NCBI GenBank assembly: GCA_038128225.1
Contig: JAYPJF010000001.1
Span: 2,155-66,154, forward strand
Direction: 5' to 3'
From: a bacterium
Lineage (GTDB): Bacteria; Patescibacteriota; Minisyncoccia; Phycocordibacterales; UBA2100
DNA: 64,000 nt
In this document: positions 8,858 to 26,470 of the stretch, in pieces
Layout: every line of letters starts with the position of its first letter
How positions within the stretch are numbered: the first letter of the stretch is position 1
Translations under genes and position numbers: made by a program
The notes under the pieces: generated by a model
Told to the model about the DNA's origin: nothing
The model's input: the letters and a program-made list of their open reading frames with translations, nothing else
Database searches by the model: none

Positions 8858-10512
8858 GCGAGCTCTTCCTCGGTAGAACGCGGAGCAAAAAATCGAAGCG
8901 TACGCGTGTGAATAACATTCATGATTTCGCGGCACTCACGACTGCCAAGGAGCATATACACTACGACAATTACCCCTATGCCCGCAACCCCTGCAGATAT
9001 CGCGTGCATAATTACTGTAAGCAATGTGGTTGCTGGCGAAATACCTCCTAGAAACTGAAGTACTCCATACGAAACCATGCTGCCGACCCCCGTTGCAGTC
9101 ATACTTTGGAGGACGACCTCACCTACTGCACGTACGAAACCTCCCGAACGCACCTCGAACCAGATAAGAAGCAGTATGGCGTGTAGCACTCCTGCAAGTG
9201 TAAAAACAAATGGGAGCATGAGTACTTCAGTACCTGGCACATCAACAATGCGGAACAAATGCTCAATAAATGCTCTGGTGTGCACGTCGCGAAAGAACAT
9301 CTGAATGTAAGGAACACTAACGATCGCTATACTGACACTTAGCGCTCCGGTTATAAATGGTGCCCATGATTGTCCAGAGGCGTAGTACGCGCGGGCAATC
9401 AAAAGCGTAAGAGCCTGAAACACAAGCCCAACCGCGAGCATCGCAAATACCGCGGCAGTAAGACGTGTATCGGTCCAGTCAAAATTTCCTGAACCGAGCA
9501 CCACGCGCACGATGTGTGCGCGCAACACAATCAAAAGACCGATTGCCGGAACTGACCAGAAAATAATATGCCGCGCCGCAAGCGCAACATGCGAAATAAA
9601 TGCCTCATGATCACCACCGGCAAAAGCCCGTGAGAGTACTGGGAACGCTGCCACGGAATAACTCGCGCCAATGATAGCGAGTGGAACCGCTTCGAGATTG
9701 ATTGCAAACGAAAAGATGGAAACCGTACCTGCGGTAAGTGTTGTCCCGAGGGTAACTAAGAACAAAAGGAGTATTTGCTGCATCGAAAGCGCAAGCGTTC
9801 GTGGAAGCGAGACCCGAATCGTGTTGAAAATATCTGCGATACGAACTCGCAACGAAAAGCCACGAAACACATATTCTTGAAACACAAAAGGAAGCAGTGT
9901 TGCAGTATGTAGTAGCGCACCGAGTACAACCCCCCACGCAAGCCCAACAGAACCCAACGCAGGGTACAATACAAACAAACTCGCAATAATTCCGATATTG
10001 TACATAAGTGGTGCAATCGCGTACAACAAAAATCGCCCACGAAGCTGAACAATAGCCGCGAGGAAATTTGAGGCACTCAATAAGAGTGCTTGCAAAAGCA
10101 TGATACGACTCATGAGAATCAGGAGCTCACGCGATGCTCCTGGAAATAAATGTGTCGCGATAAAAGGCATCAAAACCCATGTAGTACTCGCAACAACAAG
10201 CATCAAAATAGCATACCCGGTAAACACTGAATCAATGTAGGTGCGCTGTTCCTGTTCTGATCGCTTCGAGAGTTCTGGGATTAACACATACGTCGATACG
10301 AGCGCTGCGGCAATCACGAATACCAAATCGGGAATGCGAAACGCCGCGTAGTACGTATCAAGTAAGGGACCCGCACCAAACATGTGCGCAAAAAGACGAT
10401 CCCTCAGTAGTGCAAGTAGCGAAGAAACGAGCGCGCCGCCACCAAGAATATAGGCAGCAGCGTGCACACCCCTTACTTCATTGTCGAAGAAACGCCACAG
10501 GCGCCCAATCAT
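8854..10512 (-). CDS. murJ: lipid II flippase MurJ/MviN
   Basis: 14-TM protein; N-terminal LLRDRLFAHMFGAGPLLDTYYAAFRIPDLVF signature. Confidence 0.85.
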   Translation of the reverse strand: MIGRLWRFFDNEVRGVHAAAYILGGGALVSSLLALLRDRLFAHMFGAGPLLDTYYAAFRIPDLVFVIAAALVSTYVLIPELSKRSEQEQRTYIDSVFTGYAILMLVVASTTWVLMPFIATHLFPGASRELLILMSRIMLLQALLLSASNFLAAIVQLRGRFLLYAIAPLMYNIGIIASLFVLYPALGSVGLAWGVVLGALLHTATLLPFVFQEYVFRGFSLRVRIADIFNTIRVSLPRTLALSMQQILLLFLVTLGTTLTAGTVSIFSFAINLEAVPLAIIGASYSVAAFPVLSRAFAGGDHEAFISHVALAARHIIFWSVPAIGLLIVLRAHIVRVVLGSGNFDWTDTRLTAAVFAMLAVGLVFQALTLLIARAYYASGQSWAPFITGALSVSIAIVSVPYIQMFFRDVHTRAFIEHLFRIVDVPGTEVLMLPFVFTLAGVLHAILLLIWFEVRSGGFVRAVGEVVLQSMTATGVGSMVSYGVLQFLGGISPATTLLTVIMHAISAGVAGIGVIVVVYMLLGSRECREIMNVIHTRTLRFFAPRSTEEELA

Positions 10513-12867: not shown

Positions 12868-12998
12868 CTTAGCCAAAAGAAGACCCTTTCGGGCCTTCTT
12901 TTGATTCATTTCGCTGCATCATATGCAGCGCATATAGATTTGCTTACTCACAAAAGAAGACCCTTTCGGGCCTTCTTTTGATTCATTTCGCTGCATCT
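12868..12998. repeat. tandem direct repeat (period 77 bp) of a terminator unit plus the last ~18 nt of rnpB
   Basis: caaaagaagaccctttcgggccttcttttgattcatttcgctgcatc at 12874-12920 and 12951-12997. Each copy folds as a 10-bp stem (one A/C mismatch) followed by a T-run; the spacer holds the palindrome ATATGC-AGC-GCATAT. Confidence 0.8.
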
Positions 12999-19582: not shown

Positions 19583-20107
19583 TTAGTTGCTCGTGCCGGT
19601 CTCGGTCGTGGCCGGATCGATGGGAGCGGCCGGGCCCGGCTCGACCTTCGGAAGCTCGGTCGTGACCGGCGCGAGCGTTGTGGAAGCATCGGGTGCCGAC
19701 GCGATGTCGGTGCCGTTCGTCTTCGCATACGCGGCCTGGAGCTTCGCGGCCTCTTCGGGGCTCACGAAGAACGTGATCCCGCGATCGCAGGAGTTGTTCC
19801 CCACGTCCAGAAGCCGACTGCCGAGATAGCCCTCGTACTTGTACTTGACGTTCTCGCCGACCTGGCCGACGAGAACCACGGCGTCGTCGATCCTCATGAC
19901 GCACTTGTCGCCGGCGACGTTGTCGCGCCCCTCATTCCAGTTGTAGCCGGCGGCGTCGACGATCGTGACCTGCGTATCCGCCTCGATGAGTCCGTAGGTC
20001 GGCTCCGTGACAGGAACCGCCTCCCCAGCAAGGATCGAACCGCCGAAGAGGCCGACAGCGAGGAGAGACAGGGCGAGCACGAATCCGAATTTGGGTTTCT
20101 TGCGCAT
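19583..20107 (-). CDS. hypothetical secreted protein encoded with strongly GC3-biased (foreign-like) codons
   Basis: Signal peptide MRKKPKFGFVLALSLLAVGLFGG; two Cys; C-terminal Pro/Thr/Ala-rich tail. Coding GC is by-eye about 64% with third positions nearly all G/C, while flanks are AT-rich. Shadow ORFs in all frames. Confidence 0.7.
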   Translation of the reverse strand: MRKKPKFGFVLALSLLAVGLFGGSILAGEAVPVTEPTYGLIEADTQVTIVDAAGYNWNEGRDNVAGDKCVMRIDDAVVLVGQVGENVKYKYEGYLGSRLLDVGNNSCDRGITFFVSPEEAAKLQAAYAKTNGTDIASAPDASTTLAPVTTELPKVEPGPAAPIDPATTETGTSN

Positions 20108-20707: not shown

Positions 20708-21124
20708 TTACTTTCCCGACGTGTCCTGCATGATTCCGAAAATCGTTCCTTCGGGGTCTTTGCAGTATGCAAGCCACCCTACCCCCGGGATTTCCATTTT
20801 TGGAAGCGCAATCGAGCCTCCCGCTTTTTCAACCTTTTCGATCGTGTCATCAACCGACTCGACTGTCAGACTACATACAAATGCATTGACCGGCTCTCCT
20901 CCCTGCGGCTTCGGCCCTTGTCTTTTCACCATCCCGCCGTTGATCCCAGGCCATTTTGACTCGTCTTTGTAATTTTCAGGAGCGGTCATGATAATCCAAT
21001 ATTCAAAACCTGCCCCAGGAGCATCCCACTTTCGAACCTCCCATCCGAACACCCCTCGATAAAATGTGGCAAGTTTCTCTGGGTCCTCCGCATGTATCTC
21101 AAAATGAACTACGCGATTCATCAT
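20708..21124 (-). CDS. VOC/glyoxalase-bleomycin resistance family protein
   Basis: MMNRVVHFEIHAEDPEKLATFYRGVFGWEV N-terminal glyoxalase-fold signature. Confidence 0.75.
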   Translation of the reverse strand: MMNRVVHFEIHAEDPEKLATFYRGVFGWEVRKWDAPGAGFEYWIIMTAPENYKDESKWPGINGGMVKRQGPKPQGGEPVNAFVCSLTVESVDDTIEKVEKAGGSIALPKMEIPGVGWLAYCKDPEGTIFGIMQDTSGK

Positions 21125-21155
21125 ACTGCTTTAAATGCTACTCTTTATAAATAAA

Positions 21156-21593
21156 CTACTTTTTCCTTTTCATCTCTGCGCTTACCAGGCCGGGATTTTT
21201 TGCAGCGTGCTGAAGGACTTTTTTTAACGCGGGAAGATGTATGTCTTCGACCTTTTTGAATCGTATGCAGCTTTTACCAACACTTACTTTTCCCAGCTCT
21301 TTTCGATATTTCTCAGCAAGATACTCTCCCTTGTCGAGCGCACACACGTATATACTTACATATTGTTTCTGATTTGCGAGTGAAATTACTGGCCACCCAA
21401 CCTGCTCTTTCTTGGCATTGATGTACGGAAAACTACCGTATCCGAGCATATTATATGCAAAATGAGGTTTGAGCTTCGGAACAGTTTTCTGAATAAATGC
21501 GTGCAGGAAATTGATGGTTTCTGAACGTTCAGCAGGTACCGCATCGAGATACGCGCGCACTGTTTTCGCCTTAGTCGGCTTAAACATGTTCAT
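21156..21593 (-). CDS. DUF1801/YdhG-like protein
   Basis: Size and motif pattern (VRAYLDAVP...ISLANQKQYVSIYV) consistent with the DUF1801 fold; assignment tentative. Confidence 0.5.
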   Translation of the reverse strand: MNMFKPTKAKTVRAYLDAVPAERSETINFLHAFIQKTVPKLKPHFAYNMLGYGSFPYINAKKEQVGWPVISLANQKQYVSIYVCALDKGEYLAEKYRKELGKVSVGKSCIRFKKVEDIHLPALKKVLQHAAKNPGLVSAEMKRKK

Positions 21594-21607
21594 GGTTGCA
21601 GTATACG

Positions 21608-22084
21608 TTACTCCTCGCTTTTTGGCTTGCGACGCAGAGGCTTGATGTAGTGCACTGATTCCTGTGCTTTCTTAAAACCCACGGCTTTATGAAACTTTTG
21701 GCTTCGAATATTTTTTACACTGGTATCTGAAGCAATTTCTTTATACCCACGCGCTTTAAGCCACCGCTCAACATATTCAAGAATATGCTCTCCAACTCCC
21801 TCGCCACGAAATTGTTTGTGCACAAAAATTCCTTCGAGGTATGGGATTGGGTATTCGTGCGCCCCTTCGACACAATCGGTACGGAACGAGACGTTGGCGA
21901 ACGCTGCGGGTTCACCGCTGTTGCCATAACACATAAACGCCGTGCCTTTTCTTTTTCTAAAAAATCCATCGAAATTTTCAATGAGGTCTTTTCTTTCCGC
22001 GAGCGGCGAAAGTTCCTGATTCATCAAAAACCATTCTTTAAAATCTTTGCGCTGCACTCTTCTGCACGTAATGAGTTGACTCAT
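21608..22084 (-). CDS. GNAT family N-acetyltransferase (AAC(6')-like)
   Basis: Acetyl-CoA binding motif GIFVHKQFRGEGVGEHILEYVERWLKARGY. Confidence 0.75.
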   Translation of the reverse strand: MSQLITCRRVQRKDFKEWFLMNQELSPLAERKDLIENFDGFFRKRKGTAFMCYGNSGEPAAFANVSFRTDCVEGAHEYPIPYLEGIFVHKQFRGEGVGEHILEYVERWLKARGYKEIASDTSVKNIRSQKFHKAVGFKKAQESVHYIKPLRRKPKSEE

Positions 22085-22282
22085 ACAATATATGTGTCCT
22101 TATGTGAGAGGCTAGCACCCCTTGATGCATAAAGGCAAGCGTCTTGTATCGTGAAGTACCCGCCTGCCCTTGGTGTTATCAGAACGCTCTGGAAACCAAG
22201 GGTGTTTGACGACCCTAGGATCGCATGACTGAATTCAGTCTATTTCTACACAATAGTTGGAGAGAAATGCAATGTTTTTTCT

Positions 22283-22591
22283 CTACACTCGAATTGTGAG
22301 TAGAAAGGTCACGTCATCTTCAGCTTCAAGATGCTCTCTTCTGCGAATCTCCGCTTTCAGAGGCAGTAGATACGCGCCCGCTTTCTTGTCGGGAAAAATA
22401 GACGTGTGCCATGATGTTTTTCCGATAGTTACCACGACTGGCAGTGAGCCCCATCCTTTTGCTCGTGCGCCGAAGTGTTTTTTAATTTCCTCTGATTGTT
22501 TTTTCGGAACGGAAATAAAATGCCAACCAGCCATTCCAGGGTACAACCATATTTTCGATTTTAGTTTGAATTCGTTCTTTGCCACACTCAT
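22283..22591 (-). CDS. DUF1905 family protein
   Basis: IWLYPGMAGWHFISVP motif characteristic of DUF1905. Confidence 0.7.
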   Translation of the reverse strand: MSVAKNEFKLKSKIWLYPGMAGWHFISVPKKQSEEIKKHFGARAKGWGSLPVVVTIGKTSWHTSIFPDKKAGAYLLPLKAEIRRREHLEAEDDVTFLLTIRV

Positions 22592-22768
22592 TGACTATAC
22601 CATTGGCGGGCGTCTCGCAGTTAGTACTCTGAGGTCTAACCACCACAAGGGTTTTTTAGCGACTTTCGCTAGATTATTTTGAGGCGTCAGCATAGGGTCT
22701 AACTTTTAGACAAGCTGGGCGAGATTTGATACAGTCTTGCTACTCAACAATTAAGAGGAGACTGCGTC

Positions 22769-23014
22769 ATGTACGCGGTGGCAAACGTTGAAAAGTTCCT
22801 TTCCGATAACAAAGGCAAGATCAGCCATCAGAAGGCGGCGGCGATCCTGAAGCGCGCACGCAAGCAGGGCGAACCCGACGGCGTCCTGATGGCAGGCATG
22901 AGCAAGGATCTTTGGCGAGACGCTAAGCTCGAAACCCAATTCGGGCAAGTTCTGACCAACGACGTCGAGCATATCGAGATGAGTTTCAGGGCTATCAGAG
23001 CTCGCAAACACTGA
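22769..23014 (+). CDS. hypothetical small basic protein (81 aa), elevated GC3
   Basis: RBS AAGAGGAG 8 nt upstream of ATG; followed by hairpin terminator; no recognisable family. Confidence 0.5.
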   Translation: MYAVANVEKFLSDNKGKISHQKAAAILKRARKQGEPDGVLMAGMSKDLWRDAKLETQFGQVLTNDVEHIEMSFRAIRARKH

Positions 23015-23037
23015 ACGATTCTATCTCCGACGGATTT

Positions 23038-23068
23038 CAGCCCGGACTAGCGCCGGGCTTCTTTTTTA
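23038..23068 (+). terminator. rho-independent terminator
   Basis: AGCCCGGACTAGCGCCGGGCT hairpin followed by TCTTTTTT. Confidence 0.7.
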
Positions 23069-23103
23069 GACCTCAGCATACCTCCGATAAAAAATACCTA
23101 GGG

Positions 23104-23190
23104 CGGAGAGGGAGGGATTCGAACCCTCGGTCCGGTTGCCCGGACACGTCCTTTCCAGGGACGCGCTTTAGACCACTCAGCCACCTCTCC
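23104..23190 (-). tRNA. tRNA-Ser (anticodon GGA), class II with long variable arm
   Basis: Acceptor GGAGAGG/CCTCTCC, anticodon stem-loop CGTCC-CTGGAAA-GGACG, variable arm TGTCCGGGCAACCGGAC, T-arm GAGGG-TTCGAAT-CCCTC, discriminator G. Confidence 0.85.
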
Positions 23191-23280
23191 GTGTTATGAG
23201 TTTATACCACCTAGAATGAAACGGTGCCAAAAAAGACCCCGCGCGCTTGCGCGGGGCCCTTCCGTCACAACCAATAGAGC

Positions 23281-23709
23281 TCAAGGATCAGCGCCCCCCC
23301 TGTTCCGCTCGACAGGAATGGTCCACGCGCGAGCGGTGATGAAGGCGGAATCTCCCGGCTCAGAAGAACTGCCGTCCAAGCGACGTAAGCTGCCGTGACG
23401 TCGCCACTGATTCATCCGGTGGCGTTTCCACGAATTCCCGTACTGCCGTTGATAACGCCTCAGCTCTGCCCGCCGGCAACGCTCTCGACGCTCTGCCGCC
23501 GCATCAACAGGGTCCGCTTCCTCAGCGGGATCCTCTTCCCTGTAGTGTGACACCATCTCGAAAGATGCGTCGAGCCACTCTTCGAGCCACTGCCGACGAT
23601 CTTCGGCAGCGAGGCGAGAGATCGTTTCATCATAGGTTTCATCGAATGGATCACGCGGTGAGTCCCATTCCCAGCTCGTGCCCGGGTCGAATACCTGACG
23701 AGTCGACAT
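23281..23709 (-). CDS. hypothetical protein, acidic N-half and Arg-rich C-half, elevated GC
   Basis: Start taken at MSTRQVF (Met14 of ORF) preceded by AGGAGGAG RBS; no family recognised. Confidence 0.5.
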   Translation of the reverse strand: MSTRQVFDPGTSWEWDSPRDPFDETYDETISRLAAEDRRQWLEEWLDASFEMVSHYREEDPAEEADPVDAAAERRERCRRAELRRYQRQYGNSWKRHRMNQWRRHGSLRRLDGSSSEPGDSAFITARAWTIPVERNRGGADP

Positions 23710-23785
23710 CTCTCCTCCTGTTCTCTTTTTCACTAAAACTCGTGGCACTATACAATATAGATATACAAAGTCAATATTTCTACAC

Positions 23786-24685
23786 TTACACTCTCATGCC
23801 GCGCAGCGCTGCTAGGCGTTCTGGTACCGGCGGGTGGGTCGAAAACAGCTTCGCAATAAACTTCCCTGCCTCAGCCGCGCCAAAAGGGTTGGAGATAAAT
23901 AAGTGCGCAGTCGCATGACTCGCGTTTTTCATTGGCGTCTTGTAGTCGCTAATTTTTTCAAGCGCGGATGCAAGTCCTTCAGGATAGCGAGTTAAAAGCG
24001 CTCCTGATGCATCAGCAAGAAATTCGCGCCGCCGAGAAATGGCGAGCTGCAAAAGCTGCGCGGCAATCGGAGCCACTATCGCAGCAACAACCGCAGCGAT
24101 AGCAAACACAACACCCGCCTTTCCACTATCACTATCACGCCCACCACCGTAAAAACTCATCCTCAAGAAAAAGTCTGCAAGAATTGAAAGAAACCCCACA
24201 AGCACCACAGCAACGGTCATGACTAAAATGTCACGATTGCCGATGTGTGAAAGTTCATGCGCGAGCACACCTTCAAGCTCAGAACGATCGAGTCGCTCTA
24301 AAAGTCCGGTGGTCACCGCCACGACACCGTTTTTTGGTCCACGTCCTGTTGCAAACGCGTTCGGAGCAGGATCATTGATAACGTACACGCGCGGCTTAGG
24401 CAGACCTGCGGTGATCGCGAGGTTTTCAACCAATCGATTAAGCTCGAGCCATTGAGAACCCTCAGCTGGTTTTGCGCCCGTTGATGCAATCGCTACCTTG
24501 TCGGAAAACCAGTACGCACCAACATTCATCACGATGCTGAAAAATACGGCGACCCAGAGAATCGCCGGGTCACCGAGGTATGCCGACATAACCCACCCAA
24601 CCAACATCACCATGATGAAAAAACCGCTCATAAGTACCCATGTTTTCCATACATTTGCTGATTGATGAGCGTAGAGAGATGCCAT
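23786..24685 (-). CDS. htpX: M48 family zinc metalloprotease HtpX
   Basis: HELSHIGNRD zinc-binding motif and 4 TM helices. Start provisionally at Met28 (MASLYAH...); the full ORF extends to 24766. Confidence 0.8.
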   Translation of the reverse strand: MASLYAHQSANVWKTWVLMSGFFIMVMLVGWVMSAYLGDPAILWVAVFFSIVMNVGAYWFSDKVAIASTGAKPAEGSQWLELNRLVENLAITAGLPKPRVYVINDPAPNAFATGRGPKNGVVAVTTGLLERLDRSELEGVLAHELSHIGNRDILVMTVAVVLVGFLSILADFFLRMSFYGGGRDSDSGKAGVVFAIAAVVAAIVAPIAAQLLQLAISRRREFLADASGALLTRYPEGLASALEKISDYKTPMKNASHATAHLFISNPFGAAEAGKFIAKLFSTHPPVPERLAALRGMRV

Positions 24686-24787: not shown

Positions 24788-25471
24788 ATGACTTTTGAAC
24801 AACCCCCAAGAAATGGTAGTGGCACTACTTCAGAGAAATTTTGGCAGAGCGTTGAGTCTTGGATAAGGGCGCGCAACCGTGACCTTAATATTGCAACGGG
24901 AATTTTGCTTGCTGGCCTTGCCGGGTACGTGTATTTTCACAACAGCAAAGAAGTACACTGTCTGGCTCAAAACATTATTCACGAAGCACAGTTTGAACCA
25001 AAAAAAGGCCAAGAGGCTGTCGCGCTCGTCACTGTTTTGCGCGCCCTTTCTGGCAAATATCCTGAATCAGTGTGCGGGGTCGTTTTTCAAACAGAGCACG
25101 GCAGACAGTTCTCATGGACCGGAAATAAGGCGTTGGTTGCTGAGGATATAGGCGCCCGCCTTACGCATCAAATCGCGGAAATCGCGGAAAATGTTTTCGA
25201 TCTGAAAGATAACCCCAACGCACTCGCAAAGAAAGTTGCAGAACTAGGATTGACACAAGATACATATTTCTACAAACGATTCGACTGGGTGGGCGAAAAA
25301 CTAACTGAAAAGACAAAATGGTTTTTTGAACAATGCCTTGAGCCCCTCAGAGATACAAGTGGAAACCCGCTTCAGATAGGCGCCCATGTGTTCTACCGCC
25401 CGCGACTCGAATATTGCCCACCGCCACAAAAAATTCCTCCCTTGCCGGAGCGAAACCCGGTACGTTCGTGA
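24788..25471 (+). CDS. SleB/CwlJ-like cell wall hydrolase domain protein with N-terminal TM anchor
   Basis: AVALVTVLRALSGKYPESVCGVVFQTEHGRQFSW matches the Hydrolase_2 (SleB) core. Confidence 0.6.
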   Translation: MTFEQPPRNGSGTTSEKFWQSVESWIRARNRDLNIATGILLAGLAGYVYFHNSKEVHCLAQNIIHEAQFEPKKGQEAVALVTVLRALSGKYPESVCGVVFQTEHGRQFSWTGNKALVAEDIGARLTHQIAEIAENVFDLKDNPNALAKKVAELGLTQDTYFYKRFDWVGEKLTEKTKWFFEQCLEPLRDTSGNPLQIGAHVFYRPRLEYCPPPQKIPPLPERNPVRS

Positions 25472-25921: not shown

Positions 25922-26470
25922 TTAAAATTGTACTTTCACCGGCTCTTTTGCTGCCTGTTCGTTCTCGGCAAGTGCAAAGAAATCAGATTCCTTAAACTTG
26001 AACATGCTGTTGAGCGCATTGCCTGGGAATGACTGGAGCCCCGTATTCAATTCTTGCACTACCGAGTTATAGAAACGACGCGCCGCTTGAATTTTGTTTT
26101 CAGTATCGGCAAGTTCGCGTTGCAATTCGAGAAAGTTCGTGTTTGCTTTAAGGTCTGGGTAGTTTTCCGAAACAGCAAACATGGTCTTCAGCGCACCTGC
26201 GAGCATATTTTCCGCCTCACTATGTTCCGCGACTGTTTGTGCATTCATGGCACGTGTGCGCATCTCCGTTACTTTTTCAAGGGTCGTATTTTCGTGACCG
26301 GCGTATCCTTTCACGGTCTCGACAAGGTTCGGAATGAGATCATAGCGACGTTTCAGCTGCACATCGATATCCGACCACGCCTCCCGTACGCGATTAGTAA
26401 GTGTGACAAAGCGATTATAAATCCACATAACCCACAAACCAGCGCCAACAAGTATGATGAGTATCCACAT
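25922..26470 (-). CDS. LemA family protein
   Basis: N-terminal TM then LemA motifs (NRFVTLTNRVREAWSDIDVQLKRRYDLIPNLV...). Confidence 0.8.
   Translation of the reverse strand: MWILIILVGAGLWVMWIYNRFVTLTNRVREAWSDIDVQLKRRYDLIPNLVETVKGYAGHENTTLEKVTEMRTRAMNAQTVAEHSEAENMLAGALKTMFAVSENYPDLKANTNFLELQRELADTENKIQAARRFYNSVVQELNTGLQSFPGNALNSMFKFKESDFFALAENEQAAKEPVKVQF

Follow-up and report, generated by a model that had tools for sequence, protein, structure and literature searches.

The tRNA-Ser(GGA) gene of a member of the Patescibacteriota, of the Paceibacteria/Kaiserbacteria type, is flanked by two small genes, and the question that this locus raises is whether they belong to a piece of acquired DNA and, if so, where that piece begins and ends. 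The window, a stretch of 64,000 nucleotides (nt) to whose positions all coordinates refer, carries an open reading frame (ORF) of 81 amino acids (aa), here called p81, immediately 3' of the tRNA, and one of 142 aa, p142, on the other side. An earlier note had taken the whole for a small acquired module or the remnant of one. We determined that this holds for the 81-aa side, which is a discrete inserted or excisable module because it is absent from a sister strain and because both of its ends are homologous to those of elements that carry a large serine recombinase (LSR). The 142-aa gene lies outside the module. The reading that we prefer, and consider probable, is that window 22610-23106 belongs, either as an integrase-less mini-element or as a decayed remnant, to a family of LSR elements whose target in Paceibacteria is the CCA end of tRNA-Ser(GGA).

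To delimit the segment we used contigs of near-identical strains from other sequencing runs, recovered by exact-protein look-ups. One of these, the sister contig L088 (SRR30758783), is 99.2% identical to the window over 1491 nt (window 21119-22609) and then crosses from the region upstream of the DUF1905 gene straight to the tRNA 3' end (GAGGGTTCGAATCCCTCCCTCTCCGCC|AATGGTATAGTCAATG), position 22609 being joined to 23102; the junction (...CTCTCCGCC|AATGGTATAGTCAATG) carries a 5-nt repeat. Window 22610-23106 is therefore a presence/absence polymorphism, and p81 is the only ORF inside it. Besides p81, with its promoter and terminator, the segment holds a palindrome, both arms of an inverted repeat and the two conserved ends described below. 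The features on which the argument turns, with the attachment (att) site cores named as candidates, are:

22605-22609: distal junction repeat GGCGG (CCGCC on the tRNA strand), attR core, from sequence and junction mapping
22605-22677, minus strand: conserved right end ...AAAGTCGCTAAAAAACCCTTGTGGTGGTTAGACCTCAGAGTACTAACTGCGAGACGCCCGCC, about 70 nt
22610-23106, minus strand: mini-element of 497 nt (one junction-repeat copy counted), missing from L088
22769-23014, plus strand: p81, the 81-aa ORF
23063-23101, minus strand: conserved left end CTAGGTATTTTTTATCGGAGGTATGC... (nhmmer E 1.5e-9)
23101-23191, minus strand: tRNA-Ser(GGA), the integration target (Rfam tRNA, 62.6 bits)
23102-23106: proximal junction repeat GGCGG, the last tRNA acceptor and CC-end bases, attL core

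The corresponding candidate sites are attL ...CTCTCCGCC|CTAGGTATTTT, attR ...GACGCCCGCC|AATGGTATAG, attB ...CTCTCCGCC|AATGGTATAG and, reconstructed for a circular form, attP ...GACGCCCGCC|CTAGGTATTTT. The two alleles differ at the tRNA end itself, which reads G-CCC in the occupied and G-CCA in the empty allele (L088:23-30). As the occupied allele does not encode CCA, maturation of its tRNA must use a CCA-adding enzyme; an encoded CCA was seen in roughly a dozen of the related tRNA-Ser(GGA) genes compared. In the empty allele the DUF1905 ATG lies 13 nt past the tRNA, and in the occupied allele the DUF1905 operon is moved 497 nt away. A contig from another sample, L003 (DRR404984), matches window 21586-23106 exactly and breaks at 23106|23107. 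Where the tRNA would be, it has 63 nt of unrelated sequence (L003:1522-1584) that contains ATTGGCGG, the octamer of the distal junction; this flank could be a tandem element, a rearrangement or a chimera.

Both ends of the segment recur in other genomes. The left end, which on the tRNA strand reads CCGCC|CTAGGTATTTTTTATCGGAGGTATGC, matches the sequence that follows tRNA-Ser(GGA) in locus L005 at 26 of 29 nt, 22 of them consecutive and exact, in a genome whose HtpX is only 71% identical and whose tRNA differs at many positions; the left end is thus more conserved than the tRNA that it adjoins. A metagenome scan for CCGCCC-N3-GTATTTTTTATCGGAGG returned seven contigs, and the 22-nt sequence GTATTTTTTATCGGAGGTATGC is identical in L005 and five of these seven. 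The left-end motif follows tRNA-Ser(GGA) in three of the contigs, and in the remaining four the DNA before it is not tRNA and can be aligned with the distal end of the window segment (shared sequence ...AAAGTCGC.AAAAACCCTTA..G..TTGAC...GGTACTAAC...GCCCGCC). Viral contigs and phage records contained no copy of the left-end motif.

Homologues of this distal, or right, end were found in L089, L091 and L094, and an nhmmer profile built from the four right ends matched five further loci: L027 (E 8e-7), L092 (5e-6), L051 (0.011), L090 (0.038) and L020 (0.039). These matches lie on the strand of the tRNA and downstream of tRNA-Ser wherever the contig includes that gene. The right-end 12-mer GGTACTAACTGC, with at most one mismatch allowed, occurs among all loci only in window-derived sequences and in L091, each copy ending 14 nt before the junction, and the window right end joined to the left end, that is, the reconstructed attP, is nearly identical to the L091 junction. 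In its sequence the right end resembles the T-arm and the 3' acceptor strand of the tRNA in degenerate form. The ends are lacking in most relatives, also in L004, the closest. Just inside the left ends of L005, L089, L090, L091, L095 and L074 there is a hairpin, ATCGGAGGTATGC-NGAC-GCATACC..CGAT, of which the window copy lacks the 3' half, an inverted-repeat arm standing in its place. Integrase-less units with the same ends are found in L092 (~1.3 kb), L027 (~1 kb) and probably L090 (~0.6 kb).

Elements with these ends carry LSR genes. In L005 the order is tRNA, left end, an ORF of 1138 aa, a complete LSR of 441 aa at L005:13193-14518 on the opposite strand (domains Resolvase, Recombinase and Zn_ribbon_recom), a right-end-like sequence and host genes. 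The 1138-aa ORF has no Pfam match. In L094 an insert of 4.6 kb between tRNA-Ser(GGA) and a right-end|left-end junction holds an LSR that was called as two ORFs (Resolvase and Zn_ribbon_recom domains) and that is 77% identical to the N-terminal part of the L005 enzyme. L090, from the same sample as L094, is without the 4.6-kb insert, its tRNA 3' end, the same as in L094, running directly into the downstream sequence that the two share, so that L090 (empty) and L094 (occupied) form a second pair, with the crossover at CCGC. Remnants of LSR genes lie directly before the right end in L051, the position predicted by the family architecture, and 250 nt before the second left end in L074; in L064 another LSR gene immediately follows the tRNA. 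As cargo, the decayed L051 element (L051:9217-11673) carries an 819-aa SMC_N/AAA ATPase, of a kind found in defence systems.

Tandem arrays occur in L074, L094, L089, L091 and L095. In L074, 19-nt copies of the tRNA-Ser 3' end (GAATCTCTCCTCCTCCGCC) at 9211-9313 and 12890-12982 are each followed by a left end, with the LSR remnant between them, and this locus is therefore a tandem array at the same tRNA. A variant was observed in L095 (L095:1-330, reverse complement of the stored locus), where, ~170 nt after a complete tRNA-Ser(GGA), there is an 18-nt 3' piece of a tRNA-Ser gene, ATCTCTCACCCTCCGCCC, with the left end next to it; the piece belongs to a different tRNA-Ser allele, and the resident tRNA appears to have been replaced.

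These findings can be assembled into a family layout and a mechanism. In the direction of the tRNA, a full-length member would consist of tRNA ...CCGCC, the left end C-NNN-GTATTTTTTATCGGAGG with its hairpin, the cargo, an LSR gene pointing back at the tRNA and the ~70-nt right end, followed by host DNA. The consensus of the right end, AAAGTCGC-AAAAACCCTTA..GG..TTGAC...G[GT]T[AT]C..AAC...CCCGCC, mimics the tRNA T-arm and acceptor. The window copy would have kept both ends as attL and attR, with p81 alone between them at the place of the recombinase gene in L005. Judging from the linkage of LSR genes to the ends, the LSR is the likely catalyst. The window copy would not be self-mobile: its insertion or precise excision would need a family recombinase acting in trans, by which it presumably is or was mobilised, with strand exchange within the shared CCGCC core. 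Presence and absence among strains and the tandem arrays of other genomes support such mobilisation indirectly. Occupancy would then account for the change of the encoded CCA to CCC and for the displacement of the DUF1905 operon from the tRNA.

Several observations weigh against this reading. By tblastn, neither the module nor the rest of the 64-kb window contains an LSR, so that mobility of the window copy is conjectural, and the intact or near-intact LSRs number only two. The attP sites of LSRs are usually clear imperfect palindromes. Here dyad symmetry is weak, only a G..TAC / GTATGC motif near ±22 nt recurs, and the 16-nt inverted repeat of the window is not conserved in other elements. 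The conserved ends, at 40-70 nt, are longer than a canonical LSR half-site, and the left-end hairpin is conserved in sequence without covariation or compensatory changes. The alternative flank of L003 is without explanation. Furthermore, the sister-strain evidence comes from short (1.5 kb), k-mer-assembled Logan contigs, and insertion and excision or deletion both fit the 497-nt polymorphism.

In one alternative, no mobile element is involved: the DNA 3' of tRNA-Ser would be conserved host sequence, such as a trailer or regulatory region, from which the sister strain slipped out 497 nt between chance CCGCC microhomologies, and p81 would be an ordinary lineage-specific gene. We consider this unlikely. 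A microhomology of 5 nt is indeed typical of slippage deletions, the same sister haplotype carries a second, non-site-specific deletion (367 nt, in p142), the window is without a recombinase, and in several genomes the left end directly follows the tRNA, as a trailer would. However, the same right end is found in unrelated genomes, joined to a left end or 0.6-5 kb downstream of tRNA-Ser with wholly different cargo; the ends are missing from most relatives, L004 among them, and the left end outdoes the neighbouring tRNA in conservation. LSR genes or remnants between the ends in L005, L094, L051 and L074, and a second presence/absence event with the same crossover point (L090/L094), likewise argue for a site-specific element.

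A second alternative, which we regard as rather improbable, retains the site-specific family and replaces its enzyme: the catalyst would be something other than an LSR (an unrecognised tyrosine integrase or a host function), and the LSRs would be cargo or nested elements. LSRs 77% identical to each other occur in two independent elements that have the same ends, and the remnants in L051 and L074, the former at its predicted place before the right end, also tie this enzyme to the family. Pfam scans of the ORFs in and around the L005, L094 and L051 elements and of those flanking the L089 junction showed no other recombinase, and the top families for 150 variable-segment ORFs included no integrase family. 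What keeps the alternative in view is the choice of target, since tyrosine integrases characteristically target tRNA genes and serine integrases rarely do. Of 297 serine-integrase elements in a survey of 2168 genomes, 14 used t(m)RNA genes, a use that the authors described as previously unreported and in need of proof (PMC7192596). The long conserved ends and the left-end hairpin, which are unlike textbook LSR att sites, and the 19-nt tRNA 3' direct repeats of L074, which resemble those of tyrosine-integrase islands, also point this way. In the window itself, the genes around the tRNA have no tyrosine-integrase domains, and a second copy of the 24-nt tRNA 3' end (at most 3 mismatches) was not found there, the exact repeat being only 5 nt.

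It is very improbable that the segment is a miniature inverted-repeat transposable element or insertion-sequence-type element, with the inverted repeat pointed out in the earlier note as its termini and GGCGG as a 5-bp target-site duplication: the 16-nt inverted repeat (14/16), with an arm near each end, the flanking 5-nt repeat and the small size would suit such an element, but the arms are subterminal, 14 nt and 20 nt inside the junctions, and are not kept in other family members, the CTGAGGTCTAA motif has no second copy in 64 kb save one 1-mismatch chance-level match, the family members are not dispersed but all inserted at the one tRNA end, and there is no transposase.

The LSR-family reading can be extended, more speculatively, to the locus as a whole. 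It is possible, though we would not favour it at present, that the CCA end of tRNA-Ser(GGA) is the anchor of a serine-recombinase cassette-exchange system in which p81 is one cassette. Mostly single-gene units of 0.5-1.3 kb (window, L090, L092, L027) would share the same two end sites, and the few LSR-bearing members would capture, stack and excise them in trans, a function like that of an integron. Integron cassettes, similarly, are small, mostly single-gene, recombinase-less units that stand in tandem at a fixed site, each bounded by a conserved recombination-site sequence. The family differs from integrons in lacking an IntI tyrosine recombinase, the folded single-strand attC site and the attI/Pc platform, in having two distinct ends per unit, and in being anchored at a tRNA gene.

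Of other known systems, those most like the LSR family are the composite islands formed by staphylococcal cassette chromosome (SCC) elements, the psi-SCC elements, and the streptococcal cis-mobilizable elements (CIMEs). The SCC and psi-SCC elements of staphylococci are moved by the large serine recombinases CcrAB/CcrC and target the 3' end of rlmH/orfX. Like the window family, they insert site-specifically in a single conserved housekeeping gene, at its very 3' end, have short junction repeats, and form tandem composite islands and recombinase-less derivatives that keep both att-type ends. In place of rlmH/orfX, the window family has the CCA end of a tRNA gene as its target, and the host belongs to the Patescibacteria; the units are far smaller (0.5-5 kb, often one gene), bear no sequence relationship to SCC and are known here from sequence alone. 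The CIMEs described so far derive from conjugative elements that have tyrosine integrases, or serine integrases in some integrative and mobilizable elements, in Firmicutes. They resemble the window element in being short, with attL and attR homologous to those of autonomous relatives and no integrase of their own, and, like the family, occur alone or in accretion with an autonomous element; in contrast to CIMEs, no conjugation genes were seen here and the cargo is one orphan gene. With tyrosine-integrase islands and prophages at tRNA genes the family shares a tRNA 3'-end target, a strain-variable hot spot and tandem arrays, and the right end of the window element, as in such islands, carries a copy of the tRNA 3' part. 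Unlike in those islands, the only recombinase found in the family is an LSR, and the tRNA copy in the window is degenerate, with an exact repeat of 5 nt.

In a literature search, elements of this kind were not found described for Patescibacteria. To our knowledge, few mobile elements have been described in the reduced genomes of this group. The locus represents a recurrent, site-specific route of gene exchange, with population-level presence and absence among near-identical strains. The defined attB (the tRNA-Ser 3' end), the reconstructable attP and the two LSR sequences make the use of a tRNA by a serine integrase directly testable, and add candidate pairs of recombinase and att sites for genome engineering. 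The strain comparison also delimits a small orphan gene beside a tRNA to the base.

That orphan gene, p81, is furnished with its own signals, of which the earlier note had seen the ribosome-binding site and the terminator; these and the repeats around them are as follows:

22624-22639: inverted-repeat left arm GTACTCTGAGGTCTAA, starting 14 nt inside the distal junction
22655-22673, plus strand: terminator-like hairpin within the conserved right end, with a counterpart in the aligned L094 right end
22697-22711: palindrome GTCTAA-CTT-TTAGAC (GTCTAACTTTTAGAC), overlapping the p81 -35 box
22707-22712 and 22730-22735, plus strand: p81 promoter-like site, -35 TAGACA and -10 TACAGT
22753-22760, plus strand: p81 Shine-Dalgarno sequence AAGAGGAG, 8 nt 5' of the ATG
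23039-23059, plus strand: p81 intrinsic-terminator stem-loop, with the T run TCTTTTTT after it
23066-23081: inverted-repeat right arm TTAGACCTCAGCATAC, ending 20 nt inside the proximal junction and overlapping the left-end GGTATGC

The p81 protein is basic (isoelectric point (pI) 9.8), and its AlphaFold2 model, computed from the single sequence, consists of four helices with a mean confidence score (pLDDT) of 71. Its position and orientation are those of the LSR gene beside the right end in the L005 element. As a fragment of an LSR it was considered and rejected, there being no similarity to LSRs. A Foldseek search of the model against the PDB gave no match with E <3, comparison with PDB sequences gave nothing significant, and there were no matches in Pfam, PHROGs, NCBIfam or PADLOC. 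A word-indexed homology search of 5.8 billion protein clusters returned only p81 itself, and it was not found in viral contigs or phage records. Small basic helical proteins beside an att site invite the guess, which we think probably wrong, that p81 is a regulator or excision factor; any role of this kind would be conjectural.

The repeats that had drawn attention to the locus are present as described. The motif CTGAGGTCTAA (22629-22639) and its inverted copy TTAGACCTCAG (23066-23076) are exact and belong to a longer pair of 16 nt at 14/16. The window contains 21 exact inverted repeats that are 11 nt or longer and whose arms are no more than 600 nt apart, compared with 8.5 +/- 1.9 in Markov-1 simulations; since this excess consists chiefly of short-loop hairpins, the bracketing 11-nt pair by itself is unremarkable and, as a single pair, not above chance. 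In the reconstructed attP its arms flank the CCGCC core at distances of 14 nt and 20 nt, a placement that approaches the symmetry of a dimer-bound site and is suggestive only, the 11-nt extension not being kept in other elements.

GTCTAA/TTAGAC hexamers were found at four positions, the number given in the earlier note (22634, 22697, 22706 and 23066), and at a fifth, 23168. The last lies in the tRNA D-loop; of the others, one coincides with the conserved TTGAC-like box in the right end, another comes after the left-end GGTATGC, and two are back-to-back -35-like boxes in the p81 promoter, where they form the palindrome, which on the opposite strand overlaps a -35-like TAGACC facing DUF1905. Five copies in 540 nt were reached in 1 of 300 simulations for that hexamer, and the cluster becomes borderline once all hexamers are allowed for, 1 in 20 simulated windows being equally extreme. 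The short direct repeats are likewise real, the pair that holds TCAGCATA (22677-22694 and 23063-23080) matching at 15/18. Neither these TCAGCATA/TTTTAGAC repeats nor the CTGAGGTCTAA inverted repeat proved to be target-site duplications; the junction repeat is the GGCGG at 22605-22609 and 23102-23106. We also considered the repeats as relics of the tRNA 5' half and rejected this, the local-alignment score of the D-arm CTGAGTGGTCTAA against CTGAGGTCTAA being reached in 9.6% of shuffles.

Composition was referred to the 67 ORFs of the window (mean GC 0.487; mean GC at third codon positions (GC3) 0.486). The GC3 of p81 is 0.695 (z 4.15), a foreign composition that, like its lack of homologues, favours the mini-element reading, and the GC-rich appearance of p142 was borne out, with GC 0.60 (z 3.15) and GC3 0.61 (z 2.4).

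p142 is a separate, variable gene. It is not part of the module because its place is 5' of the tRNA, because L004 has positional relatives of it after HtpX, and because it is affected by an unrelated 367-nt deletion. Its surroundings are:

22283-22591, minus strand: DUF1905
23229-23261, minus strand: GC-rich p142 terminator hairpin CCCCGCGC-AAGC-GCGCGGGG, then TCTTTTTT, before the tRNA
23281-23709, minus strand: p142, the 142-aa ORF
23405-23771, minus strand: 367 nt missing in sister strains L085 and L086 (p142 promoter, Shine-Dalgarno sequence and ~102 codons)
23747-23774, minus strand: p142 promoter-like site TTGACT-16-TATAGT (10/12)
23786-24685, minus strand: M48/HtpX peptidase
24788-25471, plus strand: cell-wall hydrolase
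25922-26470, minus strand: LemA

The Shine-Dalgarno sequence of p142 is AGGAGG. The N-terminal half of the protein (residues 1-66) is acidic (pI 4.1, charge -14) and the C-terminal half basic (pI 11.5, charge +9), as had been noticed, the latter being rich in arginine and tryptophan with the motif WKRHRMNQWRR. Relatives of p142 were found only in L004, the nearest genome, where two tandem ORFs follow HtpX directly (L004:1055-1630 and L004:1748-2164, the NCBI hypothetical proteins AAB421_03835 and AAB421_03840); all three share W-K-x-x-R-x-x-x-W-R-R-x-G-x-L-R (pairwise E 3e-5). A search of 2.1 million six-frame residues from 83 loci for W-[KR]-x-x-R-x-x-x-W-R found only these three proteins, all of which lie directly after HtpX on the same strand and are GC-rich against their own genomes (GC3 0.70-0.73 in the L004 ORFs, compared with 0.47 for the adjacent HtpX). 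In L005:8897-9442, L006:8913-9449 and L011:8896-9420 the slot after HtpX is taken by a membrane protein of 175-182 aa with an Arg/Lys-rich tail, containing tryptophan in two of the three (e.g., RRRWHERQNERR), that loosely recalls the tail of p142.

An exhaustive phmmer search of 1.84 billion representatives returned p142 itself and one spurious protein, P0003, which we rejected as a homologue, its score being an artefact of 12 weak matches summed over the repeat of an FN3-repeat protein. The word-indexed search of the 5.8 billion clusters gave only p142, and a profile of the three-sequence family found only its own members. The HMM libraries, which the earlier note had proposed searching with both small proteins and which had been silent for p81, yielded for p142 a single insignificant PHROG match (E 0.096); PDB sequences gave nothing significant, and viral contigs and phage records gave no match. 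The AlphaFold2 model has a helical middle and is otherwise poor (predicted TM-score (pTM) 0.26).

L085 and L086, the sister strains with the 367-nt deletion, are 99.3-99.9% identical to the window through LemA-HtpX (divergence 0.15-0.65%). Beyond the deletion, L085:4914-5214 and L086:1380-1686 are ~10% diverged from window 23404-23102 over 300 nt, with frameshifting indels; this stretch covers the p142 remnant, the terminator, the tRNA promoter and one base of the tRNA variable arm. So sharp a jump beside the p142 deletion suggests an old haplotype or an imported segment. Being a near-orphan that is partly deleted and frameshifted in sister strains, p142 is a dispensable, fast-evolving, lineage-restricted gene in the HtpX-tRNA gap, unrelated to the element.

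Both gaps that flank the tRNA vary among relatives, as the proposed alignment between DUF1905 and htpX was meant to reveal, so that the locus is neither conserved throughout nor, by the formal calculation above, ordinary in composition. The closest HtpX relatives are metagenome-assembled genomes labelled Paceibacteria/Kaiserbacteria, at no more than 75% identity. The order LemA-HtpX-tRNA-Ser(GGA) is kept in ~60 of 80 related loci, the HtpX-to-tRNA gap ranging from 23 nt to ~5 kb in relatives; past the other gap, the backbone of relatives resumes as DUF1761-DUF192-(RNR), the distance from the tRNA to the next backbone gene being 99 nt to ~7 kb in relatives and 5.7 kb in the window. The variable segments hold a heterogeneous mix of ordinary genes (150 ORFs examined). 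At the locus, the tRNA is the sole Rfam match. Beyond DUF1905 the window has GNAT, DUF1801 and glyoxalase genes; exact-protein look-ups of the DUF1905 and GNAT products matched no record. In the same variable stretch, from tRNA-Ser to DUF1761-DUF192, a 174-aa ORF (19583-20107, minus strand), without Pfam annotation in the Logan gene table or a PADLOC match, has a signal-peptide-like N terminus and the most atypical composition in the window (GC 0.64, GC3 0.84, z ~7).

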